64,000 nt of DNA from sequence record NZ_LR134454.1. One strand, 5' to 3'. The stretch comes from a plasmid. The notes under the pieces are model-generated. The model was not told the DNA's origin. It did not search any database and saw nothing but the letters and a program-made list of their open reading frames with translations. The position numbers and the translations under genes were made by a program. Shown in pieces: positions 6,001 through 60,784 of this stretch (position 1 is the stretch's first letter; the number at the start of each line of letters is the position of its first letter).

Positions 6001-6528
6001 GGCGCGACGAACACGGACGACGCCTTCTGGAACCTGGTGCGGTCGATCGCGACGGTCGGCGCGGCACCGTCGGAGCTGCTGGACCAGACGATCGAGATGA
6101 CCCCCGTCGACCGCGCCGCGGAGGCGATGGTCGAGGTCCTCCGCACGGGCGACGAGCCGCTGCGGACGCTCGAGGTGGGCAGCGGCTCGCGGGTGAGCTG
6201 GCGGGAGATCGTCGGGGCGCTGCGCCGCGGCGGCTATCCCGTCGAGGCGGTGCCGGGGCACGTCTTCCTGGAGCGGCAGACCGCCGCGTTCCGCGACCGG
6301 CCGGAGGTGGCGGGGGCGCTCGCGCGCGCCATTCTGCTCATCCGTGCAGGTCTGGAGCGTGAGACCGTCGGCGAGGGTGGCGGCTGGACCCCGACGAGCG
6401 CCGCCGACGGGCGGATCGGGCTCGACGGTGACCGGGGTCCCGTCGGGGACGCCGGGCTCGACGTCTACGTCGACTACTTGGTGCGCATCGGCTTCCTCCC
6501 GCGCGTGGGGAAAGGGGCCGAGGTGTGA
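1..6528 (+). CDS. Non-ribosomal peptide synthetase, 3' portion (gene starts upstream of the window). Domain order seen: A (C-terminal half) - PCP - E | C - A - PCP - R (terminal thioester reductase).
   Basis: Frame 1 is open from nt 1. Motifs read from the translation: A8/A10 ([26 protein letters not shown]), PCP ([14 protein letters not shown]), epimerase-type [14 protein letters not shown]-domain HHILWDGWS, second A domain ([59 protein letters not shown]), PCP ([14 protein letters not shown]), Rossmann [14 protein letters not shown] of a terminal reductase. TGA at 6526-6528. Confidence 0.9.
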
Positions 6529-12256: not shown

Positions 12257-13087
12257 ATGTCCGCACTGAACGGCAAGATCGCCGTCGTCACCGGCTCCGG
12301 CCGCGGTATCGGCCGCGAGATCGCCCTCAAGCTCGCCGCCGACGGCGCCGCGATCGTGGTCAACGACCTCGACGAGGAGCCCGCCGCGCAGACCGTCGCC
12401 GACATCGAGGCGGCGGGCGGCCGTGCCGTCGCCTGCCCCGGCAGCGTCACCGAGGAGGGCTTCGCCGAGCGCTTCGTCGGCACGGCCGTCGATGAGCTCG
12501 GCGGGCTCGACATCATCGTCAACAATGCCGGGTACACGTGGGACTCGGTCGTGCAGAAAATGACCGACGAGCAGTGGGACGCGATTCTCGACGTGCACCT
12601 CAAGGCCCCGTTCCGGATCTTGCGCGCCGCCCAGCCGGTGATCTCGGGTCTCGTGAAGGCCGCCCGTGCGGAGGGCCGCGAGGTGCCGTGTCGCAAGGTG
12701 GTCAACATCTCCTCGATCGCCGGGCTCGGCGGCAACGCGGGCCAGGCCAATTACGCCGCGGCCAAGGCGGGCGTCACGGGCCTGACGAAGACGATCGCCA
12801 AGGAGTGGGGCCGGTACAACGTCACCGTCAACACCATCGCCTTCGGCCTCATCACGACCCGCCTGACCGAGGCCCCGGCCGGCGGCGACGGCAGCATCGA
12901 CGTCGCGGGACGGGAGATCAAGGTGGGCGTCAATCCACAGCTGCTCGACGCGATGGCGGCCCAGATCCCGCTGGGCCGCGCGGGCACTCCCCAGGAGGCC
13001 GCCGGCGCCGTGTACCTGTTGTGCCGGCCGGAGTCCGACTACGTCAGCGCGCAGACTCTGGTGTGCGGCGGCGGCTACATGATCTAG
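12257..13087 (+). CDS. Short-chain dehydrogenase/reductase (3-oxoacyl reductase-like)
   Basis: Rossmann KIAVVTGSGRGIGREIA, NNAG and SxnY..K catalytic pattern. GAAGGAG RBS at 12243-12249. Confidence 0.85.
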   Translation: MSALNGKIAVVTGSGRGIGREIALKLAADGAAIVVNDLDEEPAAQTVADIEAAGGRAVACPGSVTEEGFAERFVGTAVDELGGLDIIVNNAGYTWDSVVQKMTDEQWDAILDVHLKAPFRILRAAQPVISGLVKAARAEGREVPCRKVVNISSIAGLGGNAGQANYAAAKAGVTGLTKTIAKEWGRYNVTVNTIAFGLITTRLTEAPAGGDGSIDVAGREIKVGVNPQLLDAMAAQIPLGRAGTPQEAAGAVYLLCRPESDYVSAQTLVCGGGYMI

Positions 13088-18280: not shown

Positions 18281-18811
18281 GTGGCCGTCGCCGACGAATG
18301 GGAACTGTGGTTCCCCGACGCTTACGAGATCGGCGCGGAGACGGTGCGGTCGTTCGCCCGCGCGACCCGCAGCTGGGACGTCCCCTACGCCGTCAGCCGC
18401 CGGCTTCCGGACGACGTGGTCGTGCCGGCGACGATGCTCGGCGCACCCATGCTGCAGGCGGCGTCCGCGGTGGTCGGCCGGGCCATCCCCGGATGCAACC
18501 TCGCGGCGATCATGCACGCGGGCCAGTCCTTCACCTACTTGCGGCCGCTGCACGTGGGCGACGTCCTCAGCCTGGGGGTGCGGCTGACGTCGCACATCGT
18601 CAAGGCGGAGACCGACCTCATCGTGGTCGAGTGCATGGTCTACTCGGACGGCGAGCCGTCGCTCGACGCGGAGATCTTCCTGGTGCACAGCCAGCGCGAG
18701 ACCGGCATCGACCTCGAGGCGGCCGACCGGCTCGCCGACGAGGTGATGATGACCGGCACCGGGCCGTCGAACAGCGACGCCTACGCCGCCAACGTCGCCG
18801 GGTCCCGCTAG
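18281..18811 (+). CDS. Hotdog-fold protein (MaoC/FAS1 dehydratase-like), function unknown
   Basis: AGGAG RBS at 18271-18275 and GTG start. Hotdog-like sequence, 176 aa. Confidence 0.5.
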   Translation: MAVADEWELWFPDAYEIGAETVRSFARATRSWDVPYAVSRRLPDDVVVPATMLGAPMLQAASAVVGRAIPGCNLAAIMHAGQSFTYLRPLHVGDVLSLGVRLTSHIVKAETDLIVVECMVYSDGEPSLDAEIFLVHSQRETGIDLEAADRLADEVMMTGTGPSNSDAYAANVAGSR

Positions 18812-26567: not shown

Positions 26568-26954
26568 CTACGGTAGGTCGGTGAACAGCGGTTCCCGCCA
26601 CCGAGGTACGGAATCGTTCACTAACTTTGTCGCCTTTGCGGCATTCCGTACGCGCGAAGTCTGAGTCGAACGGCGCGCTAATGAATGTGCGACCGCAAAC
26701 CTGTGACTGACGTGCTACTCCACTAAAGGCTCTCGACCTGCATGTTTGCTGGCGATTGTGATGCCAGTCACGAAACGATAACGGTTGCATTTCGAAACGG
26801 ATTTGCTACTGCCAGGTAGTGAATCCTGTGATTAATCTTCGCGGTGATCGAGGGTGACCACCGTTCCTTATCAGCGAGTGAACTCCCTCAGTCATCCGAT
26901 CGCCGCCGACCCCCAGGCGCGTGGATCGTCACGTGAAGAACCCAGGAGAGACCT

Positions 26955-29057
26955 ATGCGTGCTGCCACCCTGCCCACGAACACCGCGCCCGTCGGAGGCA
27001 CCCCGTTCAGCTGGAGCCGGACGGGGGTGATCACCCAGGCGCTGGCCGCGACCGTCCTCGCCGGCTCGCTGACGCTCACCGCCATGCCCTCGTCGAGCTT
27101 CCAGCTGCCGTCCCCCGCGCAGGTGCTCGCCGTGCCCGCGGCGGCGGCCCCACTGCGCATGGACGTGCAGATGACGAGCATCATCGACCTGCTGCCTCCA
27201 GGGGCGATCGCGGCGATGCTGGAGGACACCAGCTCGCAGAAGCTCGCCGACGCGATGGCACTGACGAATCCGGCGAAGGTCGCCGACATCATGTCGCGCA
27301 TGGACCCGGCCAAGACCGCCAAGATCCTCGAGGCGATGCCCGCCGACAAGGTCGTCGCGATCATGAACCTGATGGACGAGAAGAAGCTGACGGCCATCGT
27401 CAACGGCCTGCCGCAGAACAAGCTCAACACCATCGTCGCGGGCCTGTCCCAGGACAAGCTCAACGCGGTGGTCAAGGCGATCCCCGAGGCCAAGCTCATC
27501 GAGGTGGTCAAGAGCCTCGACGACGCCACCCTCGGCAAGATCGTCGGCGCGCTGCCGACGGATCGCCTCGTCACCATCGTCTCCGGCCTCGATCAGCAGA
27601 AGCTCAAGGACCTCGTCGGGGGCATTCCCGCCGACGTCCTCGGCCCCGTGGTCGGAAGCCTCCCGGACGACAAGCTGGCGGCACTCGTCGGGCAGATCCC
27701 CGTCGACAAGCTGGGCGCGGTCGTCGCGACCCTCCCGCCCGCGACCATCGCCAAGCTGGTCGAGGGCCTGCCGACGTCCGTGCTGACCGAGGTGATCGGC
27801 ACCGTCGACCCCGCGAAGATCGGTCCCGCCGTCGCCGGTCTGTCGAACGACAAGCTCGCCGCCCTGGTCGGCTACATTCCGACCGACAAGCTGGCCGCCG
27901 TGGTCTCGGGCTTCGACGAGAAGAAGCTGGGCGAGATCGTCGGCCTCATCCCGGTCGAGAAGCTCGGCCCCGTGGTCGCCGGCCTGCCCGCCGACAAGCT
28001 GACCGCACTGGTCAAGCAGATCCCCGTCGAGAAGCTCATCACCGTGGTCTCGGGCCTCGACGACAAGACCCTCAGCGAGCTGGTCAACGGCATCCCGGTC
28101 GAGAAGCTCGGCCCGATCGTCGCGGGCCTGCCGACCGAGAAGCTCATCCAGCTGGTCGGATCCATCGACTCCGAGAAGCTCAAGGCGATCGTCGGCGGCC
28201 TGCCCGACGACAAGCTGCTCGACATCATGGACGGCCAGCTCATCGGCCGCGTGGTCTCGCTGGTCGTCGCGAGCCTCGGCACCCCGGGCGGCATCGCCAA
28301 GCTGCCCGACCTGCTCACCGGCGTCGTCAGCGGCGCCGTCTCGGGCGGCGCGCAGCTCGTGCCGAACCTCGTCGCGAACATCCCGCTGGTCGGCCCGGTC
28401 ATCGCCGGACCGATCCAGCTGGTCACGAACGCCGTGGTGGTGCCCGCGGTGAACCTCGGCCTGAGCCTGCTGCAGCCGGTGTTCTCGCTGATCGCCACCG
28501 TCGTCTCGCTGCCGGTCTCTCTGGCGACGTCGGTCATCGGAGGCGGCGGCCTGACGGACCTGTTCGGTGAGGTGACGAAGGGGCTCGCGGGTCTCGCCGG
28601 AACCGACGCCGCGAAGTCCCTCGACGTCGCCGCGAAGTCGCTCACCGCCGACGCGAAGCCGGAGGCGGCATCGCTGCTCGCGACCGCGGCCGCGCCCGCT
28701 GCGGAGGACGAGGCCGCCGCAGCCGGCGCCGCCGAGAAGGCGAAGGACGCCGAGACCGCCTACGTCGGCAAGCACCGCGCCGACGACAGCGAGGCGGCCG
28801 ATCCGGTGACCGTCGCGCCGACGACGGCCGAGCCGACCGACGCCGCCCCGGCGACGGAATCCGCTCCGGAGACCGTCACGGAGGCCGCTCCCGCGACCGA
28901 GGACGCCCCTGAGGACGCCCCCGAGGAGGAGGCGGCCCCCGCTGAGACGCCGGCCGCCGCGGAGACCGCCGCTCCGGCACCCGCCGAGGAGACGGCGGAC
29001 GCTGCGGACGCTGCCGCCGCCGACGAGGACGCGTCCACCACTGCCGACGCCGCCTGA
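26955..29057 (+). CDS. Secreted/membrane-anchored tandem-repeat protein: signal-like N-terminus, 28 x 12-aa repeats, Gly/Val-rich hydrophobic segment, acidic Ala/Pro/Glu/Thr tail
   Basis: GGAGAG RBS before the ATG at 26955. Hydrophobic segment ITQALAATVLAGSLTLTA. Residues 96-431 are a 12-residue unit K-L-x-x-[IVL]-V-x-x-[LI]-[PD]-x-[DE] repeated 28 times. C-terminal 150 aa are acidic low complexity. Confidence 0.7.
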   Translation: MRAATLPTNTAPVGGTPFSWSRTGVITQALAATVLAGSLTLTAMPSSSFQLPSPAQVLAVPAAAAPLRMDVQMTSIIDLLPPGAIAAMLEDTSSQKLADAMALTNPAKVADIMSRMDPAKTAKILEAMPADKVVAIMNLMDEKKLTAIVNGLPQNKLNTIVAGLSQDKLNAVVKAIPEAKLIEVVKSLDDATLGKIVGALPTDRLVTIVSGLDQQKLKDLVGGIPADVLGPVVGSLPDDKLAALVGQIPVDKLGAVVATLPPATIAKLVEGLPTSVLTEVIGTVDPAKIGPAVAGLSNDKLAALVGYIPTDKLAAVVSGFDEKKLGEIVGLIPVEKLGPVVAGLPADKLTALVKQIPVEKLITVVSGLDDKTLSELVNGIPVEKLGPIVAGLPTEKLIQLVGSIDSEKLKAIVGGLPDDKLLDIMDGQLIGRVVSLVVASLGTPGGIAKLPDLLTGVVSGAVSGGAQLVPNLVANIPLVGPVIAGPIQLVTNAVVVPAVNLGLSLLQPVFSLIATVVSLPVSLATSVIGGGGLTDLFGEVTKGLAGLAGTDAAKSLDVAAKSLTADAKPEAASLLATAAAPAAEDEAAAAGAAEKAKDAETAYVGKHRADDSEAADPVTVAPTTAEPTDAAPATESAPETVTEAAPATEDAPEDAPEEEAAPAETPAAAETAAPAPAEETADAADAAAADEDASTTADAA
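27240..28247 (+). repeat. In-frame 36-bp (12-codon) tandem repeat array, about 28 units, coding
   Basis: Units AAGCTC..(x)..GAC such as aagctcgccgacgcgatggcactgacgaatccggcg / aaggtcgccgacatcatgtcgcgcatggacccggcc. Each unit begins with a K-L codon pair and ends with an acidic residue. Confidence 0.8.
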
Positions 29058-45419: not shown

Positions 45420-46097
45420 ATGGTGCAAACGGTGGAGGCGGTCGAGCAGCGGATCGCCGATGTGGTGTTCGACCAGGTCGAGGCCGGTCGACGCGGCTGG
45501 TCGGATGTGGAGCTCGTGTACATGGCATCCGTCACGGGTGGAGTCGGGTCGCTCGTGCTACGAGTCGACGGTGGAGCTGATCACGGGCACACCGTCGCCG
45601 AAGTCGCGCCACTGTTCGAACAGCTCAGGACCGCGATGGCGTCTCCCGGGAGACCCGTCTGGTTCTCAGCGAGGATGCTCATGGACGAGGACGGCGAGTA
45701 CGCGTTCACCTTCGCCGCTCCGCCAGTGTGGTCGAGGCCTTCGTCGGTGACCGCGGCCGCTGTCATTCTGTTGGTCTTGTCCGGTCTCGTCCTGCTCGGC
45801 TTCCTCGCGTCGAACTCGAACCCGAATCGACCTCCGGCCACCTCGTCGGCCGAAGTGGCCGCGGCGCTCACGGTCGCGGCGATCGTGTGGAGCGCGGTGA
45901 TCCTCGGTGTCGTCGCCGGAATCCGCTTGCTGCGCGGTCGCGGCGGCCGGGTGGTGGCGACCGTCGCGGCGTGCATCTTCGGCCTCACCTGCGTGGGGTT
46001 GGTCGCAACGATCGCCGTTCCTCTCCTGCTGTGGCGGAACGACGAATCCCGCGGCTGGTTCGACCGGGCCCCGCGCTATCTCCCACCATCCCGGTAA
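45420..46097 (+). CDS. Hypothetical protein with soluble N-domain and C-terminal TM helices
   Basis: ORF with coding-like composition. No recognisable domain. Confidence 0.4.
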   Translation: MVQTVEAVEQRIADVVFDQVEAGRRGWSDVELVYMASVTGGVGSLVLRVDGGADHGHTVAEVAPLFEQLRTAMASPGRPVWFSARMLMDEDGEYAFTFAAPPVWSRPSSVTAAAVILLVLSGLVLLGFLASNSNPNRPPATSSAEVAAALTVAAIVWSAVILGVVAGIRLLRGRGGRVVATVAACIFGLTCVGLVATIAVPLLLWRNDESRGWFDRAPRYLPPSR

Positions 46098-46170
46098 CCG
46101 CCGCTCGAGCAGGCGCGGGGGCGTCGTCGGGGCGGATCACAGCAGCAGGATCCGGTGCCGGGCTGATCCG

Positions 46171-46254
46171 GTGGGTATGCGCCCCACGCATCGCCCGATC
46201 GGCAAAACACGGCTCTGAACTGGGATTTCAGGGGGTATGCGTGGCGCGCATAGC
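46171..46254. repeat. Two copies of the dispersed palindrome GGGTATGCG-N5-CGCAT(A) about 58 bp apart
   Basis: GGTGGGTATGCGCCCCACGCATCGCC at about 46171-46196 and GGGGGTATGCGTGGCGCGCATAGC at about 46231-46254. Both lie between the convergent 3' ends of the hypothetical gene and aftD. Confidence 0.6.
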
Positions 46255-46286
46255 TATTCAGTGCGACCACACTCCTCCTTCGCGGC

Positions 46287-49200
46287 TCAGTCCGTGGCCT
46301 CGCCGGTCCCATCGTCACCATCGGCCGTCGGCGCGCCACCGCCGCGGCGGTGCAGGAGCCGCACGGGCGGCACCGTCGACCAGGCCATCAGCAACACGCC
46401 GACCAGCGCCAGGCCCTGCGGCCACGGGCCGTGGCCCACGTAGCCGGCCTCGGCGTGCCACGGGCCCGTCGCCAGCAGCAGCATCCCGGCCAGCACGAAG
46501 CCGGACGAGCCGAACACGCGCAACGCCGCCCGACGGTCCGCCGACACGTGCAGTCCGGAGACCACCCAGGTCGCGAGTCCGGAGGCCGCCCACAGCGCGA
46601 GCCCCGGCCACCCGCTGAGCACGAACGCGACCGCGCCGATCCCGAGGCCCGCTGCGATACCCGGCTGCCAGGCCCGCACCGGTCCTCCGGAACCCCGCGG
46701 CCGCGATCCCGGGACCAGTGCCAGCGCGGCGAGGATCGCCAGCAGCGCGAGGCCGCCGAACAGCCCGATCCGGTAGGGCGCGTTGAGGGCGTACCGCAGG
46801 GTGACGGCGCCGTCGGTGCCCTGCGGCACCACCCAGCCCTGCTGCCACCCGTTGACGGTCACGGCCTTCAGCGGCGCGCCGTCCGGGCCCGTCGCCGCCC
46901 AGCCGGAGTTGCGGCTCTCGGGCACCACGAGCACCTGGTCGGCGTCGGCGCGGCTCACCGTCACGACGCGGCGATCCGGGGTCCAGCTCTGCACCTTCAC
47001 GCTCTCGTCCCGCGGCGACGCCTCGGCGGCCGCGGGCGTGTCCAGCGCCAGCGAGTCCACGCTGAACGCGAGCCCCGGCGTCGCGACCACCTGCGCCTTC
47101 CCGGCCGGCAGCGGCACCGGCGCGGGATCGCACGCCACCGCGCGGACGGGCGCGCCGTCGCGCATCTCCCGCGCTCCCGCCTCGATCCGGAAGCGCAGCA
47201 CGCGGTCGCCGATCCGCACCGTCGGACCGGTCTCACACGGCACCACGACCGGACGGTCCGCGGGCGCGGGCTCCGAGCCGGGGACGGGCGCACCGTCGGG
47301 GCCGACGGCCCGCACTTCTGCCAGCCCGGGCGCCATCTTCTCCGGGAAGCCGAAGTCGTTGATGTTGATCCGCTCGTCCCAGTCGAGCAGCGAGATCGAG
47401 ATCGAGTCGGTCACGGCCGGGTCGACCTTCACGGTGACGGAATCGCCCGCGGGCAGCTCGCGCACCTGCCTGCCGGTCCCCAGGTCGACGCCGATCCGCG
47501 TGGGCCGCGCGGGCGCCTCGCCGCGCGGCAGCCGCAGCGTCAGGCCGCCCACGACCTGCGGCGACGGCAGCCGCAGCCGCAGCACCGGCTTCGGCGACGT
47601 CGGCTCCGTGACCGACTGCGGCGCCGACCAGACCGTGTTGGGGTCCCCGTCGACGGCCGCGGCCGAGCTCGCCCGGCCGTCGCCCACCGCCGACTCCGCG
47701 AACGCCGACGGCGCGCCCGGCGCCCCGAGCAGCGCCGACAGCGCCTGCCCCGGGCGCGCGCGGACCGTCAGCGACGGTGTCACCGCAGGGGCACCGGGCC
47801 CGTCGACGGTCCGCCGCAGCGGCCCGGGCTCCTCCGGCCCGATCGCGATGTCGGCGCACTGCACCGGCCCGGGCGCGCCGTTCTCGCCGGGCGTGACGAC
47901 GCAGCCGGACCGGCCCATCGTGTCCTGCCCGAACACCCAGCGCTGCGCGGGACCGGACGCGGGCAGCGCCACGTCGTGCCGCGCCGGAATCGTCGCGCCG
48001 GACCGCGTGTCCGCGAGCTCGGCCTCCGTGATCGCGAACTGGTTGCCCCACGTGCGGTCGGCGGTCTCGGCGGCGGTGATCCGCACCCACCGCGTCGGCT
48101 CCGACGGCGCGACCAGCGTGATCGGCGTCCCCGCCGTGACGGGATCGGAGTACACCGTGCCCGCCTCCGTCGTGATGAGGAGGCGCGTCACCGCGGGACC
48201 CAGCGCCCGCCCGACGGTCACCGTCACCGACAGGTCCGCGCGGGGCTCGGGCAGCGTGAACTGCATCCACTGGTTGATGGCGTGGTCGAGGCCGGAGGAC
48301 ACCCACGCGGTGTTCTTGTCGCCGTCCACCGCGGCGGCCGTGCCCGCGCCGGGGAGCACGGTGCCGAGCTGCGTGGCGTCGGCGGCGGAGCTGGAGGCGG
48401 ACACCGTCGCGCCCTGCCACGTCCCGTCGACCAGCCCCGCCGCCGGGTAGTCGGGCAGCCGGTTCAGCGTTCGACGGGGATCGGAGGCTGTGCGGATCGC
48501 GGAGCTGTGGTCGTCGACGCGGCCGTAGTCGGTCTCGCGGCGCTTGGGGGTATCGGTGACGGTCAGCGGGCCGTCGGGCAGCCCCGCGTCCTTCGCGTCG
48601 GAGGCGAGCAGCGCCGCGCCCAGCTCACGCCGGCCCGACGCGGCGGCGTCGGCCTGCAGCCCCAGCAGCGCCTCCGGCCCGCCCGCGACGCGCGGCATCG
48701 ACGCCAGGTCGGCGACGTACGGCCCGGTGGGGGCGGCACCGTCGACCCGGTAGATCGTGATGGCGGGGAGCGGCGGCCGCAGCCCCGAGTCGACGACCAC
48801 CTTCTCGACGGTCGGCGGGGCGATGTCCGCGCCGAACCGGGCGACCTCGCTGATCCCGGGCGAGCCGATGATCGCGGCGCGGGCCAGCGCAGGCCGCGCC
48901 GAGCGCGACGTTCCGGGATCGAGATCAGCGCGCAGCACGAGGTAGGAGATGCCCTGGCGGCGCAGCGTCGCGGCCAGGCCCGCCGACGGGGTACCGGCGC
49001 TGAACAGCCGCTGCACCGAGTCGAGGGCGCGGATCGCGCCGGGCGGGTTGAGCGGGATCGCGTCGCGCACCGCCCACGGCGTCTCGGCCAGGGGCTGGAT
49101 CGGCTCGTCGCGCGTGAGGCCCCACAGCTGCGCACCGAACGGCGCGCCGGGCACGACGAGCGCGCGCTCGGCCCGGGCCTGGCCGGGGGCGGTCCCGGCG

Positions 49201-50576
49201 GCGTGCGCCGACAGCCAGTCCGCGGCCTGCGACCAGTAGTCGGGGATCTTGTCGTACGGCCCGCGGGGCGCGAGCTTGCCCGTCCACGCCATGCCGCCCG
49301 CGAGCGCGAGCACCACGACCACGGCCAGGGCACCCGCCGCGAGCCGGTCCTGCTCGGGGTGCGCCAGGGCCCGCCGGACCTTCGCGAGGCCGACGGTGCC
49401 GGGCAGCGGCGCCCGGGCCAGCAGGTGTGCCATGCCCAGGACCAGCGGCAACCGCAGGAAGGGCTCGAGCTTGTAGACGTTGCGCAGGGGCGCGCCGACG
49501 CTGTCGAGGAAGACCCGCACCGGCTCGGCGAACGGCGAACCGAGGCCGCTGGCGTAGCCCGCGCCGATCCCCGCCAGGCCGACGAGCAGCACCGTCGCCC
49601 AGACCCCGCGCTTGGGCATGCGGCGCATGGTGAGCCCGGCGATGCCGGCGCACGCGACCAGGCCGGTGACGACGACGGCGGCGGGGGAGGTGGTGAGCAT
49701 GGCGCCGGCGCCGCGCTCGTCGGAGATGAACGGGCTCCACGACGTGGTGCCGCGCAGCACCTCCGGCACCGACGCCCACTGCGTGGTCGCGCGGGAGGAC
49801 TCGATGAACTCGAGGAACGGCGGGCTGACGCGGCCCATGATGAGCAGCGGCACGATCCACCACGTGGTCGCCAGCGCGACGCACACCGCCCACCAGGCGC
49901 TGAACGTCCAGAAGCGGCGGGTCCCGGCGCCGAAGCGCACGTGCAGCAGCCACCACAGCGCGGCGACCGCGCACGCGAAGCCCGTGGCCACGGCGTTGAC
50001 CGCGCCCATGAGCGCGACCGCGACCGCCGAGCGGGCGGCCAGGTTCCGCAGCGGCACGTCCGCGCCCTGCAGGAGCTGCACCAGCGGCAGCAGCACCCAC
50101 GGCGCGAGCATCACCGGCGCGGTCTCGGAGCTGATCGCGCCCAGCGTCGTGAGCACCTGCGGGGCCAGCACGAACGCCGCGGCCGCGACGACCCGGCTGC
50201 CGCGCGAGCCGGTGCGCAGTGCCTCGGCGAGCCGGATGATCCCCCAGAAGCCGGCGAACAGGAGCAGCGCCCACCACAGGCGCTGCGTGACCCACGGCGG
50301 GACGTGCAGGAACTGGCCCAGCGCGAAGAACGCGCCGTGCGGGAAGAAGTAGCCGTAGGCCTGGTTCTGCACCTGGCCGAGCGGGGACTGGCTGGACCAG
50401 ACGTTGGCCGCGCGGGCGAGGAAGCCGATGGGGTTCGCCGTGAGATCGAGCTTGGTGTCGGCGACGACCTTCCCGGGCGCGCTGAGGAAGCTCAGCGCGA
50501 GCAGGGCGACGAACGCCCACGCGCCTGCGCGGCGGGTCAGGGGTTCGTCGGAGAAGTGGGGGCTACTTGTTGGCAC
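46287..50576 (-). CDS. aftD: Arabinofuranosyltransferase AftD (GT-C membrane domain plus large periplasmic carbohydrate-binding region)
   Basis: 1429 aa. N-terminus DTKLDLTANPIGFLARAANVWSSQSPLGQVQNQAYGYFFPHGAFF matches the conserved AftD/DUF3367 N-terminal region. Multi-TM N-terminus, long soluble middle, C-terminal TM cluster. GTG start; neighbourhood syntenic with Mtb Rv0236c. Confidence 0.85.
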   Translation of the reverse strand: MPTSSPHFSDEPLTRRAGAWAFVALLALSFLSAPGKVVADTKLDLTANPIGFLARAANVWSSQSPLGQVQNQAYGYFFPHGAFFALGQFLHVPPWVTQRLWWALLLFAGFWGIIRLAEALRTGSRGSRVVAAAAFVLAPQVLTTLGAISSETAPVMLAPWVLLPLVQLLQGADVPLRNLAARSAVAVALMGAVNAVATGFACAVAALWWLLHVRFGAGTRRFWTFSAWWAVCVALATTWWIVPLLIMGRVSPPFLEFIESSRATTQWASVPEVLRGTTSWSPFISDERGAGAMLTTSPAAVVVTGLVACAGIAGLTMRRMPKRGVWATVLLVGLAGIGAGYASGLGSPFAEPVRVFLDSVGAPLRNVYKLEPFLRLPLVLGMAHLLARAPLPGTVGLAKVRRALAHPEQDRLAAGALAVVVVLALAGGMAWTGKLAPRGPYDKIPDYWSQAADWLSAHAAGTAPGQARAERALVVPGAPFGAQLWGLTRDEPIQPLAETPWAVRDAIPLNPPGAIRALDSVQRLFSAGTPSAGLAATLRRQGISYLVLRADLDPGTSRSARPALARAAIIGSPGISEVARFGADIAPPTVEKVVVDSGLRPPLPAITIYRVDGAAPTGPYVADLASMPRVAGGPEALLGLQADAAASGRRELGAALLASDAKDAGLPDGPLTVTDTPKRRETDYGRVDDHSSAIRTASDPRRTLNRLPDYPAAGLVDGTWQGATVSASSSAADATQLGTVLPGAGTAAAVDGDKNTAWVSSGLDHAINQWMQFTLPEPRADLSVTVTVGRALGPAVTRLLITTEAGTVYSDPVTAGTPITLVAPSEPTRWVRITAAETADRTWGNQFAITEAELADTRSGATIPARHDVALPASGPAQRWVFGQDTMGRSGCVVTPGENGAPGPVQCADIAIGPEEPGPLRRTVDGPGAPAVTPSLTVRARPGQALSALLGAPGAPSAFAESAVGDGRASSAAAVDGDPNTVWSAPQSVTEPTSPKPVLRLRLPSPQVVGGLTLRLPRGEAPARPTRIGVDLGTGRQVRELPAGDSVTVKVDPAVTDSISISLLDWDERININDFGFPEKMAPGLAEVRAVGPDGAPVPGSEPAPADRPVVVPCETGPTVRIGDRVLRFRIEAGAREMRDGAPVRAVACDPAPVPLPAGKAQVVATPGLAFSVDSLALDTPAAAEASPRDESVKVQSWTPDRRVVTVSRADADQVLVVPESRNSGWAATGPDGAPLKAVTVNGWQQGWVVPQGTDGAVTLRYALNAPYRIGLFGGLALLAILAALALVPGSRPRGSGGPVRAWQPGIAAGLGIGAVAFVLSGWPGLALWAASGLATWVVSGLHVSADRRAALRVFGSSGFVLAGMLLLATGPWHAEAGYVGHGPWPQGLALVGVLLMAWSTVPPVRLLHRRGGGAPTADGDDGTGEATD

Positions 50577-51417: not shown

Positions 51418-52341
51418 ATGCGAAGAAACCGCACCCCGCTCCGTCCCGTCGCCCTCGCCGCGGCCGTGCTCGCCGCCCTCGCCGTGACGCCCGCGACCGC
51501 GGGAGCGGCACCGTCGAACCAGGCCTGCGGGGGCTGGCGCACGACGGTCCTGCGGTCCGGCATGGGCGCCCTCGAGAACCTCGCCTTCGACGGCACCGGC
51601 ACCGTCTACCTGTCCCGGCAGAACGTGCTCACCGGGAAGGGGAGCCTGCTCGCGGGCGCCGCGCCCGGCGCGCTGCGCACCGTCGTCGACCTGCCGAACC
51701 CCGGCGGGATCGTGGTCCGCGGCGGCGCGGTGCACGTCGCGACGGCGAACAGCGCGCCGTCGGGGCTGCTGGGGAAGCCGGACGGCACGGTGACCGTCGT
51801 GGACCCGGCCACCGGCGCGACCCGCATCGTCGCGTCCGGGCTGACCATGCCCAACGGCCTCGCGCTGCTGCCCGACGGCCGCGCCGTGACCAGCACCGTC
51901 CTCGGCCCGCGGCAGGGGATCGTCGCGACCGCGCCCGGCGGCGTGCCCGTGCCCTTCGCGCTGCGCGGCGAGCCCGTCAACGGCCTCTGGTTCGACGGTG
52001 CCTCCGGCCGCCTCTGGGCCTCGACGGCCACCACCGCGACCACGCGGCTCTACGCCATCGATCCCGCGCATCCCGACCGGCCGCGCCGCTACGAGGTGCC
52101 CGGGTTCGGGCCGGGGCACTTCGCCGACGACCTCACCGTGGGGCCCGACGGTGCCGTCTACGCCGCGCTCGACCTGCCGGGGACCGTCGTGCGGCTCGAC
52201 CCGGCGACCGGCGCGCAGTGCACGATCGCGACCGGTCACCGCGGCGTGACGTCGGTGCGGTTCGGCCGCGGCCCGGGCTGGGACGGCGCCGCGCTGTACG
52301 CGACGACCCTCACCGGCAAGCTGCTTCGGCTGGCCCGGTAG
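51418..52341 (+). CDS. SMP-30/gluconolactonase/LRE-like (strictosidine-synthase-like beta-propeller) secreted protein
   Basis: Signal peptide LAAAVLAALAVTPATAGAAP, then Gly-rich beta-propeller-like repeats. Confidence 0.65.
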   Translation: MRRNRTPLRPVALAAAVLAALAVTPATAGAAPSNQACGGWRTTVLRSGMGALENLAFDGTGTVYLSRQNVLTGKGSLLAGAAPGALRTVVDLPNPGGIVVRGGAVHVATANSAPSGLLGKPDGTVTVVDPATGATRIVASGLTMPNGLALLPDGRAVTSTVLGPRQGIVATAPGGVPVPFALRGEPVNGLWFDGASGRLWASTATTATTRLYAIDPAHPDRPRRYEVPGFGPGHFADDLTVGPDGAVYAALDLPGTVVRLDPATGAQCTIATGHRGVTSVRFGRGPGWDGAALYATTLTGKLLRLAR

Positions 52342-52368
52342 CGGCGGCGATCTGACAGACTGGCCCCG

Positions 52369-53532
52369 ATGCAGAAGTTTCGGAACCTCACGATCCTGGT
52401 GATCGCCGCGGCCGGCGTCGCGGCGTGCGGCCCGTCGAACCCCGACGCCGCGCTGTCCACGACGACCGTGGCGCAGGCCCCGTCGGCGACGAGGTCCGCG
52501 GCACCGTCGTCGGGCCCGGGACGCCCGGTGACCTGCGCTTCGGACTTCCTCGCGAAGCTCTCGGTGCGGGAGAAGGCCGGGCAGTTGCTCATGGTCGGCG
52601 TGAAGGACGCGGCCGACGCCCGGCGCGCCGTGCAGCAGGGCGTGGGCGGCGTGTTCATCGGTAGCTGGACCGACAAATCCGTGTTCTCGGGCGGGACGCT
52701 GCAGGGCGTCGCGAAGGCCGGGAAGGTGCCGGCGATGGTCTCCGTCGACGAGGAGGGCGGCCGCGTCTCCCGCGTGCCCGGCGCGAACCTCGTCTCGGCG
52801 CGCGAGCTGGCGCGCACGAAGACCGTCGCGCAGGCGCGAGCCGAGGGCGCGCGCGTCGGCAAGCTGTTGAAGTCGATGGGGATCACCGTGGACTTCGCCC
52901 CCGACGCCGACGTCTCCGCCCAGTCCGACGACTCCGTGATCGGCGACCGCTCGTACTCGAACGACCCGGCCGTGGTCGTGAAGTACTCGCAGGCCTTCGC
53001 CGCGGGCCTGCGCGACGGTGGCGTGTACCCGGTGTTCAAGCACTTCCCGGGGCACGGCAGCTCGTCGGGCGACTCGCACCAGGGCGGGGTGAGCGTGCCG
53101 CCGCTGAACGCCTTGAAGGCCAAGGACCTCGTGCCCTTCCGCGCCGCGGTCGACACCGGCGACGCGGGCGTCATGGTCGGCCACCTGACGGTGCCCGGCC
53201 TCACGGAGCCGGGCCTGCCGACCAGCCTCAGCCCGGCGACGATGCGCCTCCTGCGCGACGGTGCCGGGTACGGCGCGAAGCCCTTCGACGGGCCGATCTT
53301 CACCGATGATCTCTCCGGGATGAAGGCGATCACCGACCGGTTCAGCGTGCCGCAGGCCGTCGCGAAGTCGCTGGAGGCGGGCGCCGACGTCGCGCTGTGG
53401 ATCTCCACCGATCAGCTGGGCGCGGCGCTCGACGCCGTGGAGGCCTCGGTGAAGGCGAAGCGCATCACGATGCGGCGCCTCGACGATTCCGTGCTCCGCG
53501 TGGCGCGGGTGAAGCACGCCGTACGCTGCTGA
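52369..53532 (+). CDS. lpqI: Beta-N-acetylhexosaminidase lipoprotein (GH3, NagZ-like)
   Basis: Lipobox VAAC. GH3 motifs KHFPGHGSSSGDSHQG. Position after aftD as in Mtb Rv0237. Confidence 0.85.
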   Translation: MQKFRNLTILVIAAAGVAACGPSNPDAALSTTTVAQAPSATRSAAPSSGPGRPVTCASDFLAKLSVREKAGQLLMVGVKDAADARRAVQQGVGGVFIGSWTDKSVFSGGTLQGVAKAGKVPAMVSVDEEGGRVSRVPGANLVSARELARTKTVAQARAEGARVGKLLKSMGITVDFAPDADVSAQSDDSVIGDRSYSNDPAVVVKYSQAFAAGLRDGGVYPVFKHFPGHGSSSGDSHQGGVSVPPLNALKAKDLVPFRAAVDTGDAGVMVGHLTVPGLTEPGLPTSLSPATMRLLRDGAGYGAKPFDGPIFTDDLSGMKAITDRFSVPQAVAKSLEAGADVALWISTDQLGAALDAVEASVKAKRITMRRLDDSVLRVARVKHAVRC

Positions 53533-53555
53533 TTCCGAACGGATTTCACCGGAAC

Positions 53556-53600
53556 TTACTTGCGAGTAACCTCGTGGGCTAGGATCTGACTCGAGAGTAA
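53556..53600 (+). promoter_or_regulatory. Two operator-like dyads TTACTT-GC-GAGTAA (53556-53569) and TGACTC-GA-GAGTAA (53587-53600) upstream of the TetR gene
   Basis: Inverted repeats read directly from the sequence; the second overlaps the RBS. The same dyad recurs at 57265-57278. Confidence 0.55.
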
Positions 53601-53611
53601 GGAGGACGCCG

Positions 53612-54208
53612 ATGGCCGGTGGGACGAAGCGTTTGCCGCGCGCGGTACGCGAGCAGCAGATGCTGGACGCCGCCATCAAGGTGTTCTCGCGCAACGGCTT
53701 CTACGAGACGTCGATGGACGCGGTGGCCCGTGAGGCGCAGATCAGCAAGCCGATGCTGTACCTGTACTACGGGTCCAAGGACGAACTCTTCGCCGCGTGC
53801 GTCACGCGCGAGGCGGGCAAGTTCATGCGCAGCATCGAGTTCGACGCCAGCCCCACGCTGCCGCCGTCGCAGCGCCTGCGCTCGGTGATCGCCGGCTTCC
53901 TCAAGTACGTCGACCAGAACCGCGACGCCTGGCGCGTGATGTACCGCGAGACCACCGGCCAGGCCGCCTTCGCCGCGCTCTCCGAGAACAGCCGCGAGCG
54001 GGTCGTCGAGATGACCGCGGTGCTGCTCCGCGAGGCCGCCAAGTACGCGCCGGAGGACACGGATTTCGAGCTCTACGCCGTCGCCCTCGTCGGCTCCGGC
54101 GAGGCGATCGCGGACCGTCTGGCCACCGGCAAGGTCGAGCTCGACCGCGCCGTCGAGATCATGACCTCGTTCCTCTGGGGCGGCATCCGCGGCGAACGCC
54201 CGGAGTGA
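53612..54208 (+). CDS. TetR-family transcriptional regulator (Rv0238-like)
   Basis: HTH AAIKVFSRNGFYETSMDAVAREAQISKPMLYLYY. AAGGAGGA RBS. Confidence 0.85.
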   Translation: MAGGTKRLPRAVREQQMLDAAIKVFSRNGFYETSMDAVAREAQISKPMLYLYYGSKDELFAACVTREAGKFMRSIEFDASPTLPPSQRLRSVIAGFLKYVDQNRDAWRVMYRETTGQAAFAALSENSRERVVEMTAVLLREAAKYAPEDTDFELYAVALVGSGEAIADRLATGKVELDRAVEIMTSFLWGGIRGERPE

Positions 54209-54209
54209 G

Positions 54210-54773
54210 TCAGTCGGACAGTTCTTGCCACCACCGGCCGGAGAGGTGCGTGACCCTGGTCCGAGCCGCGTCGGTCGGGGTCGCGCCGTCGGGGTGGTAG
54301 GCCAGGCGCGTGGTACTGATCGACGGGCCGGCGATGTGGAACCGCACGACACTGTCGGTCTTGTACGCCGAGTAGACCTGCTGAGTTCCGATCTTCCGTG
54401 ATTCGTAGTCGACGACGTCCGCCCGCGGGTCGGCGAGCATCTGCTCGGCGACGGCCCGCAACCGGGGTTCGTCGTAGTTCCACCGGGCCTCGGGCACCGC
54501 GTTCGTCACGCCCAGCCCGATCGCGATCGCCCCGATCAGCGGAATGATCAGCAACCGCCACGCGAACCGGCGGATCGTGCGCGCCCAGGCCACCAGGTAC
54601 ACCAGCCAGCCCAGGAACAGAACCACACCGCCGAGGAGCGACAGCACGCCCAGGCCGGGGTCGCCGGGGAAGGTGCCTGCCCAGAGGAGCGCCGCGGCGT
54701 CGAGGACGAGAAAGACCGCCAGTCCGTACCCGAAGTGGGTCCAATTGCGCTGCGCCTCACGATCTGCCGTCAT
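54210..54773 (-). CDS. Membrane protein, unknown function (187 aa)
   Basis: Three predicted TM helices at the N-terminus. Convergent with the TetR gene. Confidence 0.45.
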   Translation of the reverse strand: MTADREAQRNWTHFGYGLAVFLVLDAAALLWAGTFPGDPGLGVLSLLGGVVLFLGWLVYLVAWARTIRRFAWRLLIIPLIGAIAIGLGVTNAVPEARWNYDEPRLRAVAEQMLADPRADVVDYESRKIGTQQVYSAYKTDSVVRFHIAGPSISTTRLAYHPDGATPTDAARTRVTHLSGRWWQELSD

Positions 54774-54837
54774 GCATCGACACTACGAGATGCTGCATGG
54801 CCCGAGCGCGGGAATGTCGACGCCGCTGCGTCCAGTG

Positions 54838-54864
54838 ACGGGTATGCGTTCCGCGCATCGCTCT
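54838..54864. repeat. Copy of the dispersed palindrome GGGTATGCG-N5-CGCAT
   Basis: GACGGGTATGCGTTCCGCGCATCGCTC, in the intergenic region downstream of htdX. Confidence 0.55.
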
Positions 54865-54963
54865 TCTGAACGACTACTGCACCCCCGCGGCCCGCGCGCC
54901 CGCACCCGGAGACGACGGTGCCCGCCGCGGCCGAAGCCGGGCGGGCACCGTCGGAGAACAGGG

Positions 54964-55856: not shown

Positions 55857-57215
55857 TCAGGCCCCCAGCAGGCTCTGACCGCAGACGCGCACGACGTTGC
55901 CGGTCACCGCGGCCGAGGACGGCGCGGCGAAGTAGGAGATGGTCTCCGCGACGTCGACGGTCTGGCCGCCCTGCTGCAGCGAGTTCATGAGGCGGCCGGC
56001 CTGGCGGGTGGCCAGCGGGATCGCGGCGGTCATGGCGGTCTCGATGAAGCCGGGCGCCACGGCGTTGATGGTGATGTTCTTCTTCGCCAGGACCGGGGTG
56101 TAGGCGTCGACGATGCCGATGACGCCGGCCTTGGTCGCGCCGTAGTTGGTCTGGCCGCGGTTGCCCGCGATGCCGGCGATCGACGAGACGTCGACGACGG
56201 CGCCGCCCTCGTTCAGGGCGTCCTCGGCGAGCAGGGCGTCGACCAGCTGCTTCGGCGCCTTGAGGTTGACGGCCATGACCGAGTTCCAGCGACCCTCGTC
56301 CATGTTGGCGAGCAGCTTGTCGCGGGTGATACCGGCGTTGTTGACGATGATGTCGAGGCCGCTGTGGCGCGACTTCACCAGTTCGGCGATCTTCTTGCCC
56401 GCGTCCTCTGCGGTCACGTCGAGGGGCAGCGCGGTGCCGCCGACCTTGTTCGCGACGGCGGACAGGGCCTCGCCGGCGGCGGGGATGTCGGCGGCGATGA
56501 CATGGGCGCCGTCGCGCGAGAGGACCTCGGCGATGGTGGCGCCGATGCCGCGGGCGGCGCCGGTGACCAGCGCGACCTTGCCGGCGAGCGGCTTGTCCCA
56601 ATCGGCGGGCGCGGCGGCGTCCTTGTCGGTGATGCGGATGACCTGCGCGTCGACGTAGGCCGACTTGCCCGACAGGAGGAAGCGCAGCGTCGAGGCCAGG
56701 CCCGAGGCGCCGGTGGCGGCGTCCGGGTGCACGTAGACGAGCTGCGCGGTGGCGCCGTCGCGGAGCTCCTTGGCGACGGAGCGGGTGAAGCCCTCGAGGG
56801 CGCGCTGGACGATGTGCTCGTCGAGGTCCTCGATCAGCTCGGGCGTGGTGCCGAGCACCACGACGCGGGCGCTGTTGCCCAGCGTGCGCATCTGCGGGCC
56901 GAAGAACTCGTAGAGGCCGACGAGCTCGTCGATCGACGTGATGCCGGTGGCGTCGAAGACCGCGCCGCCCAGCTTCTCGGCGCCGCGGGCGCCGCCGTTG
57001 TTGACGACGAGGTCGTAGTCCGCGAGCAGCTCGCGCACGGGCTCGACGAGGCGGCCCTTGCCGCCGAGGAGGACGGGGCCGGCGAGCGCGGGCTTGCCGG
57101 CCTGGTAGCGGCGCAGGACCGGCGGCTGCGGCAGGCCGAGTCGGCTGGCCAGGAAGGAGCCGGGGCCCGACTTCACGAAGGCCGCGTAGAAGTCCGTGCT
57201 GGGTGCATCAGGCAT
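55857..57215 (-). CDS. fabG4: 3-oxoacyl-[ACP] reductase FabG4 (two-domain, high-molecular-weight FabG)
   Basis: 453 aa from the ATG at 57215 ([23 protein letters not shown]...), collinear with mycobacterial FabG4 including [19 protein letters not shown] and NNAGITRD. The track ORF extends 5' without a stop but has no support upstream. Confidence 0.85.
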
Positions 57216-58665: not shown

Positions 58666-59088
58666 ATGACCGCGACGGACGATCTGATCGAGAGGATCCT
58701 GCGCGACTACGACACCATCACGGTGGTCGGGGCCAGCGTCGATCCGGCGAAGGCGGCCCACGACGTGCCCGCCTACATGCAGCACCGCGGATGGCGCATC
58801 ATCCCGGTGAACCCGCACGCCGACGAGATACTCGGCGAGCCGGTGTACCGCACCCTGGCCGACGTCCCGGAACAAGTCGGCCTGGTCGACGTCTTCCGGC
58901 CCGCCGAGTTCACGCCCGACATCGCCCGGCAGGCCGTCGCCGCCGGGGCGACGGCGCTGTGGCTGCAGCTGGGCATCCGCTCGGCCGAGGCGCGCGAGAT
59001 CGCCGAGTCCGCCGGGCTGCTCTACGTCGAGGACCGCTGCCTCATCATCGAACAGCGCCGCACGCAGATCTCCAGGAGGAGCGCATGA
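58666..59088 (+). CDS. CoA-binding domain protein (YccU-like)
   Basis: TITVVGASVDPAKAAHDV...IIPVNP Rossmann-like CoA-binding motif. 140 aa. Confidence 0.75.
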   Translation: MTATDDLIERILRDYDTITVVGASVDPAKAAHDVPAYMQHRGWRIIPVNPHADEILGEPVYRTLADVPEQVGLVDVFRPAEFTPDIARQAVAAGATALWLQLGIRSAEAREIAESAGLLYVEDRCLIIEQRRTQISRRSA

Positions 59089-59585
59089 CCTTCGGCATCG
59101 TCGTCGTCGCCGTGGTCGCGGTCGTGGCCGTCCTCATGCTGATCGGCGTCGTGTGGTTCCTCCGCGACTCCAACAAGCGGATCAAGGACTTCGCCAACTC
59201 CGGCGATCTGATCCCCGGCCGTCCCGGCCGCGCGCCCGCCGAGTGGGCGAACGCCACCTCCACCGAGGCGCTCCTGCACCAGCGCACCCGCTACGCCATC
59301 GCCGACGTGCACCGCGGCGCCTTCGCCCCAGCCGTCCCGCCGCCCGCGGATTCCGCGATCAACGGCTCGGAGTCCGACCTCGCCGCCCTCGACGACGCCG
59401 TCTTCGCCCTCGACGACCGCATCATCGCCGCCGCGCAGCTCTCGGGCGAGGAGCGCACGAAAGCCCTGGGCGAGCTGGAACCCAAGGTCGCGGCTCTGGA
59501 AGGCCTCACCGGGAAGCTCTGGGATGCCCCGTCGGCCCAGCGCCGCCCCCTCATCGACGGCGTGACCGCTACGCTCCTCCGCTGA
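59085..59585 (+). CDS. Membrane-anchored protein of unknown function (166 aa)
   Basis: AGGAGGA RBS. ATGA overlap with the upstream gene. Single N-terminal TM helix IVVVAVVAVVAVLMLIGVVWF. Confidence 0.5.
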   Translation: MTFGIVVVAVVAVVAVLMLIGVVWFLRDSNKRIKDFANSGDLIPGRPGRAPAEWANATSTEALLHQRTRYAIADVHRGAFAPAVPPPADSAINGSESDLAALDDAVFALDDRIIAAAQLSGEERTKALGELEPKVAALEGLTGKLWDAPSAQRRPLIDGVTATLLR

Positions 59586-59632
59586 GCTCGTCGCCCGCGC
59601 GGGGCGGGGTGTTGCTCGGAGCAGTTATGCGT

Positions 59633-59707
59633 CCCACGCATACCCCCGAACCCCGCAGCTAGACGCTGTCTTCTTCGGGCCGGGCCATGCGTCTGGCGCA
59701 TACCCTC
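59633..59707. repeat. Two further copies of the dispersed palindrome, about 53 bp apart
   Basis: AGTTATGCGTCCCACGCATACCCCC (about 59633-59657) and GGCCATGCGTCTGGCGCATACCCTC (about 59683-59707), between convergent 3' ends. Confidence 0.6.
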
Positions 59708-59761: not shown

Positions 59762-60784
59762 TCAGCGCCCGATGACCTCCGCCGCCCGCGGGCGACTCAC
59801 GGCCGCGCGGAACCGCTCCACCCCGACGTGCAGCCCCCACGACAGCACGATGGTGATCGCGGTGGTCACCACGACGATGGGCCACGTGGAACCGGTGAAC
59901 AGCGACCAGCCGAACAGGTCCAACACCACGAACTCCATGACAATCACGTGGAGGAGGAAGAACTCGTAGCTGATGGAGCCGAGCCACACCATCGGCCTCG
60001 AACCCAGCACGCGCGACGGCCCGGTCGCGAACGCGGCCACCAGCAGCCCGCCGATCAGCGCCTCCAGCAGGAACTTCGTCACCCCCTGCGCCGGGGTCGG
60101 CAGCCGGAGGTCGATCGGCCCGGCGACCGGGGTCAGCAGCACGCCGTAGGCGACCGCCGCGGCGAGCAGCAGAGGCCACCGCGGCAGCCGCACCCGGTCG
60201 ACCAGCAGCGCCACCGCCATGCCCGCGGCGAACGCGGCGGCGAACCCGGGCGGCCACGACCGCGCCGTCTTCCCGAAGACCTCCGTCGCGGTCACCAGCA
60301 CCAGCCAGCCCACGGACAGGGCGACCATCGCCGCCGGCACCGTCCACGCCCGGCGGGCGCGCAGCAGCCACAGCCCCAGGAGTGGAAGTGCCAGGTAGAA
60401 GGCGACTTCCACGCACATGCTCCACATCTGCGTCAGGCCCGTGTGCACGTGACCGACGCCGTAGATCTGCGTGAAACTCAGGTGCCGGAGGTAGTCGCCC
60501 CACCCGTGCCCGTGCGGCGAACCGTCGGGACGCCAGAGGTAGATGACGTACACGACGGTGACCACCGCCCAGTACGCGGGCAGGATCCGCCACGCCCGCG
60601 AGACGGCGTACCGCCGCACGTCCGGAGGCGTGCCCCCGGCCCGTGCGCGGATCCACGGCCGCACCAGCAGGAACCCCGACAGCGCGAAGAACACGGGCAC
60701 CGCGGTCTCGAGCCGCGCGTAGGCGGCGCCGAGCGCATCCGGGGTGAAGTCACCGCCCCAGAACGCGGCGTGCGTGACGCACAC
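59762..60784 (-). CDS. Acyltransferase family 3 protein; no canonical start codon upstream of the conserved N-terminal motif (possible non-ATG start, pseudogene or sequence error)
   Basis: The family signature ALTGLRALAAFGVCVTHAAF is encoded in frame between the YhgE/Pip TGA (60860-60862) and the first GTG (60784). There is no ATG/GTG/TTG in those 25 codons, only ATC and CTG. Confidence 0.55.
   Translation of the reverse strand: MCVTHAAFWGGDFTPDALGAAYARLETAVPVFFALSGFLLVRPWIRARAGGTPPDVRRYAVSRAWRILPAYWAVVTVVYVIYLWRPDGSPHGHGWGDYLRHLSFTQIYGVGHVHTGLTQMWSMCVEVAFYLALPLLGLWLLRARRAWTVPAAMVALSVGWLVLVTATEVFGKTARSWPPGFAAAFAAGMAVALLVDRVRLPRWPLLLAAAVAYGVLLTPVAGPIDLRLPTPAQGVTKFLLEALIGGLLVAAFATGPSRVLGSRPMVWLGSISYEFFLLHVIVMEFVVLDLFGWSLFTGSTWPIVVVTTAITIVLSWGLHVGVERFRAAVSRPRAAEVIGR

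Follow-up and report, generated by a model that had tools for sequence, protein, structure and literature searches.

The stretch of DNA analysed here, referred to as the window, comprises 64,000 nt with a G+C content of about 72% and is 100% identical to Tsukamurella tyrosinosolvens GCA_900104775.1, its first base corresponding to approximately position 345,882 of the record. It contains three copies, A, B and C, of an intergenic element. Element A (46172–46275, plus strand) is located between two convergent genes, a 225-aa gene (45420–46097, plus strand) and the gene for AftD (46287–50576, minus strand), and 11 nt separate the end of its tail from the stop codon of AftD, which lies on the other strand. 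The 225-aa gene codes for a membrane protein with a weak match to DUF6989 only. Element C (59603–59706, minus strand) also lies between convergent genes, a 166-aa gene (59085–59585, plus strand) and an Acyl_transf_3 gene (59762–60784, minus strand); here the distance between the end of the tail and the stop codon of the former, on the plus strand, is 17 nt. Element B (54767–54882, plus strand) is found between two co-directional minus-strand genes, MaoC (stop at 54964) and a 187-aa gene (start at 54773), where it is flanked by the terminator-like hairpin of the MaoC operon (54918–54955) and the start of the 187-aa gene.

Repeats of other kinds were also noted in the window. At least 12 copies of a 36-nt (12-residue) repeat are present at 27424–28232, inside an open reading frame (26937–29057). 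Positions 88–748 and 4612–5272, 4524 bp apart within the large open reading frame 1–6528, are 74–80% identical, and we take them for repeated non-ribosomal peptide synthetase modules. An 84-nt inverted repeat (12698–12781 and 56115–56198, 79% complementary) has its arms in two coding regions; as one of its arms falls within a KR/adh_short gene (55857–57215), it probably reflects similarity between paralogous genes. The ‘tRNA-???’ with a four-base anticodon that ARAGORN placed at 3079–3173, within the large open reading frame, is almost certainly a false positive.

The original prediction, made on the window alone, described five copies of a palindrome, TATGCG-N5-CGCATA. This was confirmed, as were the intergenic position of every copy and the five spacers that had been listed (cccca, tggcg, ttccg, tccca and tctgg). 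Two exact sites occur in the window (46236 and 59626), for 0.00 expected from 100 dinucleotide-preserving shuffles; allowing up to two mismatches gives exactly five (46176, 46236, 54843, 59626 and 59686), against a shuffle mean of 0.8, and none of the shuffles reached five. Some particulars required correction. The fourth copy starts at 59626 and not at about 59636, and the spacing within both doublets is exactly 60 bp from start to start, with 43 bp separating the 17-mers, instead of 53–58 bp. Convergent gene ends flank the doublets A and C, and co-directional genes the single copy B. The two members of each doublet have the same orientation, the asymmetric form of the palindrome (GGGTATGCG-N5-CGCAT-N-GC) being on the plus strand at 46176 and 46236 and on the minus strand at 59626 and 59686. 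Short G+C-rich hairpins are common at 72% G+C, and the palindromes could in principle be chance matches or terminators that evolved separately. This possibility, to which we assign practically no weight, is refuted by the counts given above and by a homology that spans 104 nt with E-values down to 1e-22. The palindromes belong to one dispersed repeat family whose shared sequence extends well past them, in agreement with the earlier view that they are not independent terminators.

The 17-mer is nevertheless not the unit of repetition, as had been assumed. The two doublets of the window align well beyond the palindromes, sharing the motif TCTGA(A/C)CTG between them, and the single copy B aligns with the second hairpin of a doublet; approximately 20 nt on the 3′ side of the second hairpin (CT..TC.G..CGAC.AC) are also common to the window copies. 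The basic module is an oriented composite of about 104 nt, normally one half of an inverted repeat of about 255 bp, and consists of hairpin 1, a 41-nt spacer with the CTGACCTGC motif, hairpin 2 and a tail of about 20 nt ending in ...CGAC(T/A)AC. A covariance model, R1, was constructed from 27 copies alignable over 104 columns, and it recovered exactly three elements from the 64 kb. Element A scored 95.2 bits (E = 1e-22; opposite strand 29.7 bits). It has its hairpin 1, GGGTATGCG-cccca-CGCATcgcc, at 46173–46195, the spacer motif TCTGAACTG (family consensus TCTGACCTGC) in conserved alignment columns at 46214–46222, and hairpin 2, GGGTATGCG-tggcg-CGCATagct, at 46233–46255, all on the plus strand. 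Its hairpin 1 is built of an invariant 5-bp core, a 2×2 internal loop and two outer pairs. Element C scored 87.6 bits (26.3 bits on the other strand); read on the minus strand, its hairpin 1 (59683–59705) is GGGTATGCG-ccaga-CGCATggcc and its hairpin 2 (59623–59645) is GGGTATGCG-tggga-CGCATaact. The score of element B was 33.6 bits (E = 5e-7): hairpin 1 has collapsed through an internal deletion, and hairpin 2 (GGGTATGCG-ttccg-CGCATcgct, 54840–54862, plus strand) and the tail are intact. Five other T. tyrosinosolvens-type sequences were compared, and three of them have GGGTG as the loop of this hairpin; two-hairpin orthologues of B are present in T. ocularis (L007, 7676–7779) and in Tsukamurella sp. 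M9C (L017, 7495–7598). The composite is oriented, since opposite strands score low with R1: 16–30 bits in the window and, over the copies, about 25–33 bits versus 55–98 bits on the proper strand. Indels between copies rule out a coding function.

Strand polarity of this strength, together with the many G-U pairs that form only on the strand defined as plus for the element and the location in convergent intergenic regions, typical sites of small RNA genes, raises the question of whether the composite might encode a small RNA or serve as antisense RNA to the 3′ end of a neighbouring gene. We regard this as improbable. Nothing resembling a promoter was detected, and conservation does not extend into the 5′ flank; a consensus scan for sigma-70, SigF-type (GGGTAT) and ECF-type (GAAC) promoters returned none, and the spacings checked by hand did not match. 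Rfam offered no family, the window giving no hit at the gathering score and positions 46100–46330 only chance-level matches at E ≤10. Covariation of the hairpin pairs did not exceed that of shuffles (74 of 500 reached the observed score), and RNAalifold predicted nothing past the two short hairpins. The stems are fixed in sequence and the loops free, the reverse of most RNA motifs. Nor does a terminator hairpin follow the tail: a third G+C-rich hairpin, convincing to the eye, was considered there and rejected, as the folding of the 3′ flanks is on a par with that of shuffles (mean z = −0.15) and does not surpass that of the 5′ flanks.

All true members of the family come from Tsukamurella. A scan for strict doublets in one genome per species returned 14 blocks; the true members are from T. 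ocularis, T. conjunctivitidis, T. pseudospumae, T. spumae and Tsukamurella sp. M9C and sp. PLM1, with at most six strict doublets per representative genome. Seven further strict-doublet matches, outside Tsukamurella, are unrelated tandem repeats. Many of the matches within the genus are orthologues of the window loci: L012, L013 and L015 correspond to A, and L007 and L017 to B and C. Orthologues of C are also present in L002–L006. T. ocularis, sp. M9C, T. conjunctivitidis and T. pseudospumae are the species in which loci A, B and C were met again, the flanking DNA being 84–93% identical. At least 120 stretches were retrieved from metagenomes, and 80 of these were scored with R1. Among the matches listed, seven exceeded 50 bits; they lie on five contigs, all of which map to known Tsukamurella loci (A, C/D, E, F or G1/G2), and the listed stretches from other organisms had low scores. 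As the high-scoring metagenome matches all fall at known loci, the family appears to be small, roughly 6–12 composites per genome at about ten loci according to the scans of representatives, metagenomes and fetched loci. In the source genome, a stretch of about 60 kb contains at least six composites; past the window these include E, just beyond the window end (L001, 18561–18663), and G1 and G2, 41 kb further on (L035, 8821–8924 and 10423–10531). The phage and plasmid collections contained no match to the element, the single viral match being an unrelated repeat. A full-text literature search on the motif and on Tsukamurella or actinobacterial repeats found no description of the family.

The loci compared differ in other respects as well. 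In the metagenome-derived strain L002, window positions 54205–54911, with the 187-aa gene and element B, are replaced by a 4.4-kb island that codes for an N6_Mtase/Eco57I-type methylase, a GmrSD_N protein and an AAA_21 ATPase and looks like a defence island; strain L004 is devoid of positions 51664–54623. A second, unrelated long palindromic repeat, CGTTTCC..CTTCTTCAT...GCAACGGGATGAAGAGG.GGAAACGGG, occupies two distant intergenic sites of the T. tyrosinosolvens genome (L033, 4640–4700, and L035, 10345–10405) and none in the window. Long intergenic palindromes of a third type are represented in this genome by a hairpin beside element E, past the window end (L001, approximately 18700–18760), whose perfect stem, CTTCCGAAGCGTTCTGCGAC...GTCGCAGAACGCTTCGGAAG, measures about 20 bp. 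Finally, an A+T-rich block of about 150 nt, outside the window and downstream of an Asp/Glu racemase gene (L033, 3800–3950; FNSA01000003.1, approximately 116 kb), is nearly invariant in T. tyrosinosolvens, sp. NPDC003166 and sp. M9C, while its flanks diverge; it has no match in Rfam and may be an unannotated non-coding RNA.

In the other species, the composites are mostly arranged as head-to-head pairs, usually between convergent genes, with 50–315 bp between the first hairpins. The complete unit consists of two such modules and forms an inverted repeat of about 255 bp or longer with arms of about 105 bp; the tails make up its outer ends and lie directly next to the stop codons of the two convergent genes. 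The full unit folds as a hairpin of about 110 bp (−172 kcal/mol, z = −10.4). The window strain has half-units only, because the partners A′ and D were lost. A 263-bp deletion has taken away element D, the partner of C; strains L003 and L005 retain D, L004 has part of it, with a run of N there, and it is also found in M9C and T. ocularis. An insertion within the species was considered for this 263-bp difference and rejected, since the two last-named genomes carry D. The partner of A, A′, has been replaced by the species-specific 225-aa membrane-protein gene; the A loci aligned from M9C, T. conjunctivitidis and T. pseudospumae lack this gene and have A′ in its place. The C/D unit of M9C and the unit at the racemase locus of the same strain are about 82% identical over approximately 255 bp, including the 50-bp centre, and their homology stops at GTGTTG...CAACAC. 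Since two unrelated loci share the whole unit, centre included, this comparison demonstrates that the inverted repeat was copied as a block.

In T. paurometabola, T. serpentis and Tsukamurella sp. 8F, the syntenic regions (72 kb in total) contain largely the same genes in the same order and have no element and not a single ATGCG-N5-CGCAT site. At three of these outgroup junctions (AftD in T. paurometabola and T. serpentis, C/D in T. paurometabola) the called convergent genes overlap, and by our reading the remaining junctions have neither an element nor room for one. The elements are therefore insertions in one subclade, and this distribution, together with the homology between paralogous loci, places the entry and copying of the unit in the ancestor of the T. 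tyrosinosolvens/ocularis/spumae/pseudospumae group. The racemase locus provides a further example of presence and absence, since M9C has a unit there and T. tyrosinosolvens and sp. NPDC003166 have none. The borders of the roughly 390-bp insert are ragged, and no clean direct repeat or target-site duplication was seen between the filled and empty loci; the flanking duplications that could have hinted at mobility were thus not found. The sole polymorphism within the species is the 263-bp deletion, not an insertion. Gene tables and Pfam scans of the fetched loci contain no transposase, no REP-associated tyrosine transposase (RAYT) of the kind that the original prediction proposed to look for and no other mobilizing gene, nor do these loci include an autonomous element with matching ends. 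With unclean junctions and no transposase in the fetched loci, past mobility is suggested by the distribution of the unit and by the homology between paralogous loci.

One hairpin differs between strains by a rearrangement. In element E, the loop of strain L004 (18909–18923) is the exact reverse complement of that in the other strains, as in L003 (18907–18921), CCCGA versus TCGGG, and in L004 the 3′ arm has been altered so that it pairs perfectly with the 5′ arm. What looked like an inversion breakpoint in L004 is thus a loop flipped in place. Such a flip is the signature of template switching at a quasi-palindrome and shows the hairpin acting as a palindrome in living cells. Behaviour of this sort would also be in keeping with a REP/REPIN-type origin, in which an HUH (Y1) transposase, be it a RAYT or the TnpA of IS200/IS605, would act on the hairpins as single-stranded DNA and the composite is a miniature of left end plus right end (PATE). 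Two imperfect hairpins run in the same direction on one strand, as at the ends of IS200/IS605, a conserved mismatch gives each of them polarity, the location is extragenic, and inverted doublets form long hairpins, as REPINs do. However, no Y1 transposase domain was present in the gene tables and Pfam scans covering about 250 kb of Tsukamurella loci, the copies number tens at most and not hundreds, and no tetranucleotide is conserved 5′ of the stem; we consider this origin rather unlikely.

The various parts of the composite have diverged to very different degrees. The core, defined as 20 columns (ATGCG and CGCAT in both hairpins), is 99% identical in orthologous as well as in paralogous pairs. 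The corresponding values are 70 and 62% for the outer stems, 65 and 43% for the loops, 59 and 46% for the spacer and 61 and 43% for the tail. If the core drifted like the rest, the probability of all 20 positions surviving in any one pair would be about 0.6^20 = 4e-5. No compensatory change was detected in the core among 54 hairpins, and a G.G mismatch two positions outside it is retained in about two-thirds of them. Fixed half-sites, a free centre and the lack of covariation point to sequence-specific recognition by a protein and not to base pairing alone. The shared protein-binding site offered by the original prediction is in line with this, as invariant half-sites with free spacers would fit one common recognition site.

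A protein-binding palindrome could also be an operator. According to this explanation, the palindromes serve a dimeric transcription factor with a small regulon and two operators 60 bp apart at each site, the surrounding similarity being secondary. Invariant 5-bp half-sites around a free 5-bp centre, without compensatory changes, are what a classic dimer operator looks like, and the low copy number, the conservation of positions across species and the grouping of six composites of the source genome within about 60 kb speak in its favour. The gene context does not. By our reading of the gene tables, the tail points toward a gene 3′ end at 14 of 17 independent composite positions, which are hence not promoters, and the flanking genes have no function in common: they code for AftD, two Acyl_transf_3 proteins, MaoC dehydratase and HutH as well as arginase-family, aldehyde dehydrogenase, phytoene synthase, hydrolase, ECF sigma factor and other proteins (Pfam). 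Moreover, whole 255-bp units, with their non-palindromic parts, are common to unrelated loci, and sister species lack the sites in syntenic regions where the genes themselves have been retained. A nearby candidate regulator, the PadR protein encoded between composites G1 and G2 in T. ocularis and T. tyrosinosolvens, was excluded as the binder; it is conserved in species without the element, among them T. paurometabola, and in many other actinobacteria, and has a different inverted repeat of its own upstream. Operators are accordingly rather unlikely, if slightly less so than the transposase substrates discussed above.

The family resembles several classes of known repeats without coinciding with any of them. 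MIRUs, to which the palindromes had been likened, are intergenic repeats of mycobacteria made of head-to-tail tandem units. The Tsukamurella repeats are likewise intergenic and found in Mycobacteriales; they differ in that the two doublets of the window, both tested with TRF (0 rows), contain no tandem array. REP, BIME and REPIN sequences, the other likeness proposed, are extragenic imperfect palindromes, with doublets that form longer hairpins, which persist vertically and for which roles in termination, mRNA stability and protein binding have been proposed. The extragenic imperfect palindromes, the doublets folding into longer structures and the long vertical persistence are shared by the element, as are roles of the kinds proposed. 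In contrast, its copies are tens at most (three composites in 64 kb, about ten loci per genome) and not hundreds, the two hairpins of a composite are direct and not inverted, no RAYT was seen, and there is no GT(A/G)G-type head: the 5′ flank of hairpin 1 is not conserved, and GTAT lies inside the stem.

A closer parallel is provided by the ERIC (IRU) sequences of Enterobacteria, long imperfect intergenic palindromes of modest copy number in some species, which occupy the same loci in related genomes, include half-copies and copies with internal indels and are conserved to a degree that suggested a function in transcripts; we know of no transposase for them. The Tsukamurella element has these traits in common with ERIC: intergenic palindromes of modest number, stable positions, half-copies, copies with indels, a highly conserved sequence and no known transposase. 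Its sequence is unrelated, however, each of its arms has two short invariant palindromes 60 bp apart, and it is confined to one subclade of a single actinobacterial genus. Bacterial MITEs such as the Correia elements of Neisseria are non-coding and shorter than 600 bp, have terminal inverted repeats, differ in presence or absence between genomes and form long hairpins in RNA. These properties recur here, as the unit is short (about 255 bp) and non-coding with inverted arms of about 105 bp at its ends, can fold into a long RNA hairpin and is lacking in the three outgroups and in some racemase loci. The inverted repeats are nonetheless very long for a MITE, no target-site duplication was found at the racemase loci, and the most conserved parts are the internal palindromes and not the termini. 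To our knowledge, there is no parent insertion sequence with the ends of this element.

In Mycobacterium, a lineage of Mycobacteriales that is poor in U-tract terminators, the TRIT palindromes are restricted to the genus and found in tight association with gene termini, with 147 copies in M. tuberculosis, mostly over the stop codon at about −8 (PMC3152330). Being palindromic, TRITs are bidirectional, and the conservation of their sequence led the authors to propose a binding factor (PMC3152330). The Tsukamurella element is comparable in its restriction to a genus, its palindromes, its position at gene termini and its conserved sequence, a likeness of description; it differs in having about ten loci, in lying after the stop codon and in being a composite of two hairpins. 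A CRISPR mini-array was also considered and dismissed, because the two hairpins of an element have unlike loops and the different loci share a conserved ‘spacer’.

Sequence comparison shows the element to be a non-coding composite that has a defined orientation and is restricted to one lineage; it was inserted at gene ends and copied in the form of an inverted repeat, and its 15-bp palindromes are under strong constraint. The explanation that we favour, with reasonable though far from full confidence, is that it represents a small Tsukamurella-specific family of formerly mobile palindromic repeats of the MITE/ERIC kind, with palindromes that are predicted to be recognized by a protein and a predicted role as a barrier or 3′-end structure. 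The four 15-bp palindromes of a unit (ATGCG-N5-CGCAT, with a free loop) would be the recognition sites of a sequence-specific protein, either the enzyme that once mobilized the element or a host factor, and purifying selection would maintain them. Convergent transcription into the unit might bring out the local hairpins or, in a full unit, the hairpin of about 110 bp, which would act in RNA or DNA as a bidirectional barrier or protect 3′ ends. Such a structure between converging genes is probably the function of the element. In this genus U-tract terminators are missing at the element sites; positions 45900–46500 have 0 terminator-like sites, the hairpins being followed by C/G-rich sequence with no U-tract, and this lack of a U-tract or consensus terminator weighs against the barrier role. 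The low copy number and the stable positions would equally suit a regulatory element of the host. A more specific version is offered here only tentatively: the four ATGCG-N5-CGCAT palindromes of a full unit, phased at 60 bp, may be docking sites for a dedicated, sequence-specific protein, which could be a domesticated transposase or a termination or insulator factor, and the barrier between convergent genes would then depend on that protein in both directions. If true, this would be a concrete case of the factor-assisted termination that has been proposed, and never shown, for the conserved palindromic terminators of Mycobacteriales.

The repeats described here form, judging by the full-text literature search, a new family of Tsukamurella, of a kind that is familiar in bacteria. 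They account for several long unannotated intergenic regions and for local differences between strains. With a ten-position core that is 99% identical, surroundings that are free to vary and about ten conserved sites per genome, the family makes a clean and tractable case of a repeat that has been co-opted or is actively maintained. High-G+C actinobacteria are largely without U-tract terminators, and a factor reading these palindromes would bear on how such bacteria separate convergent transcription units.
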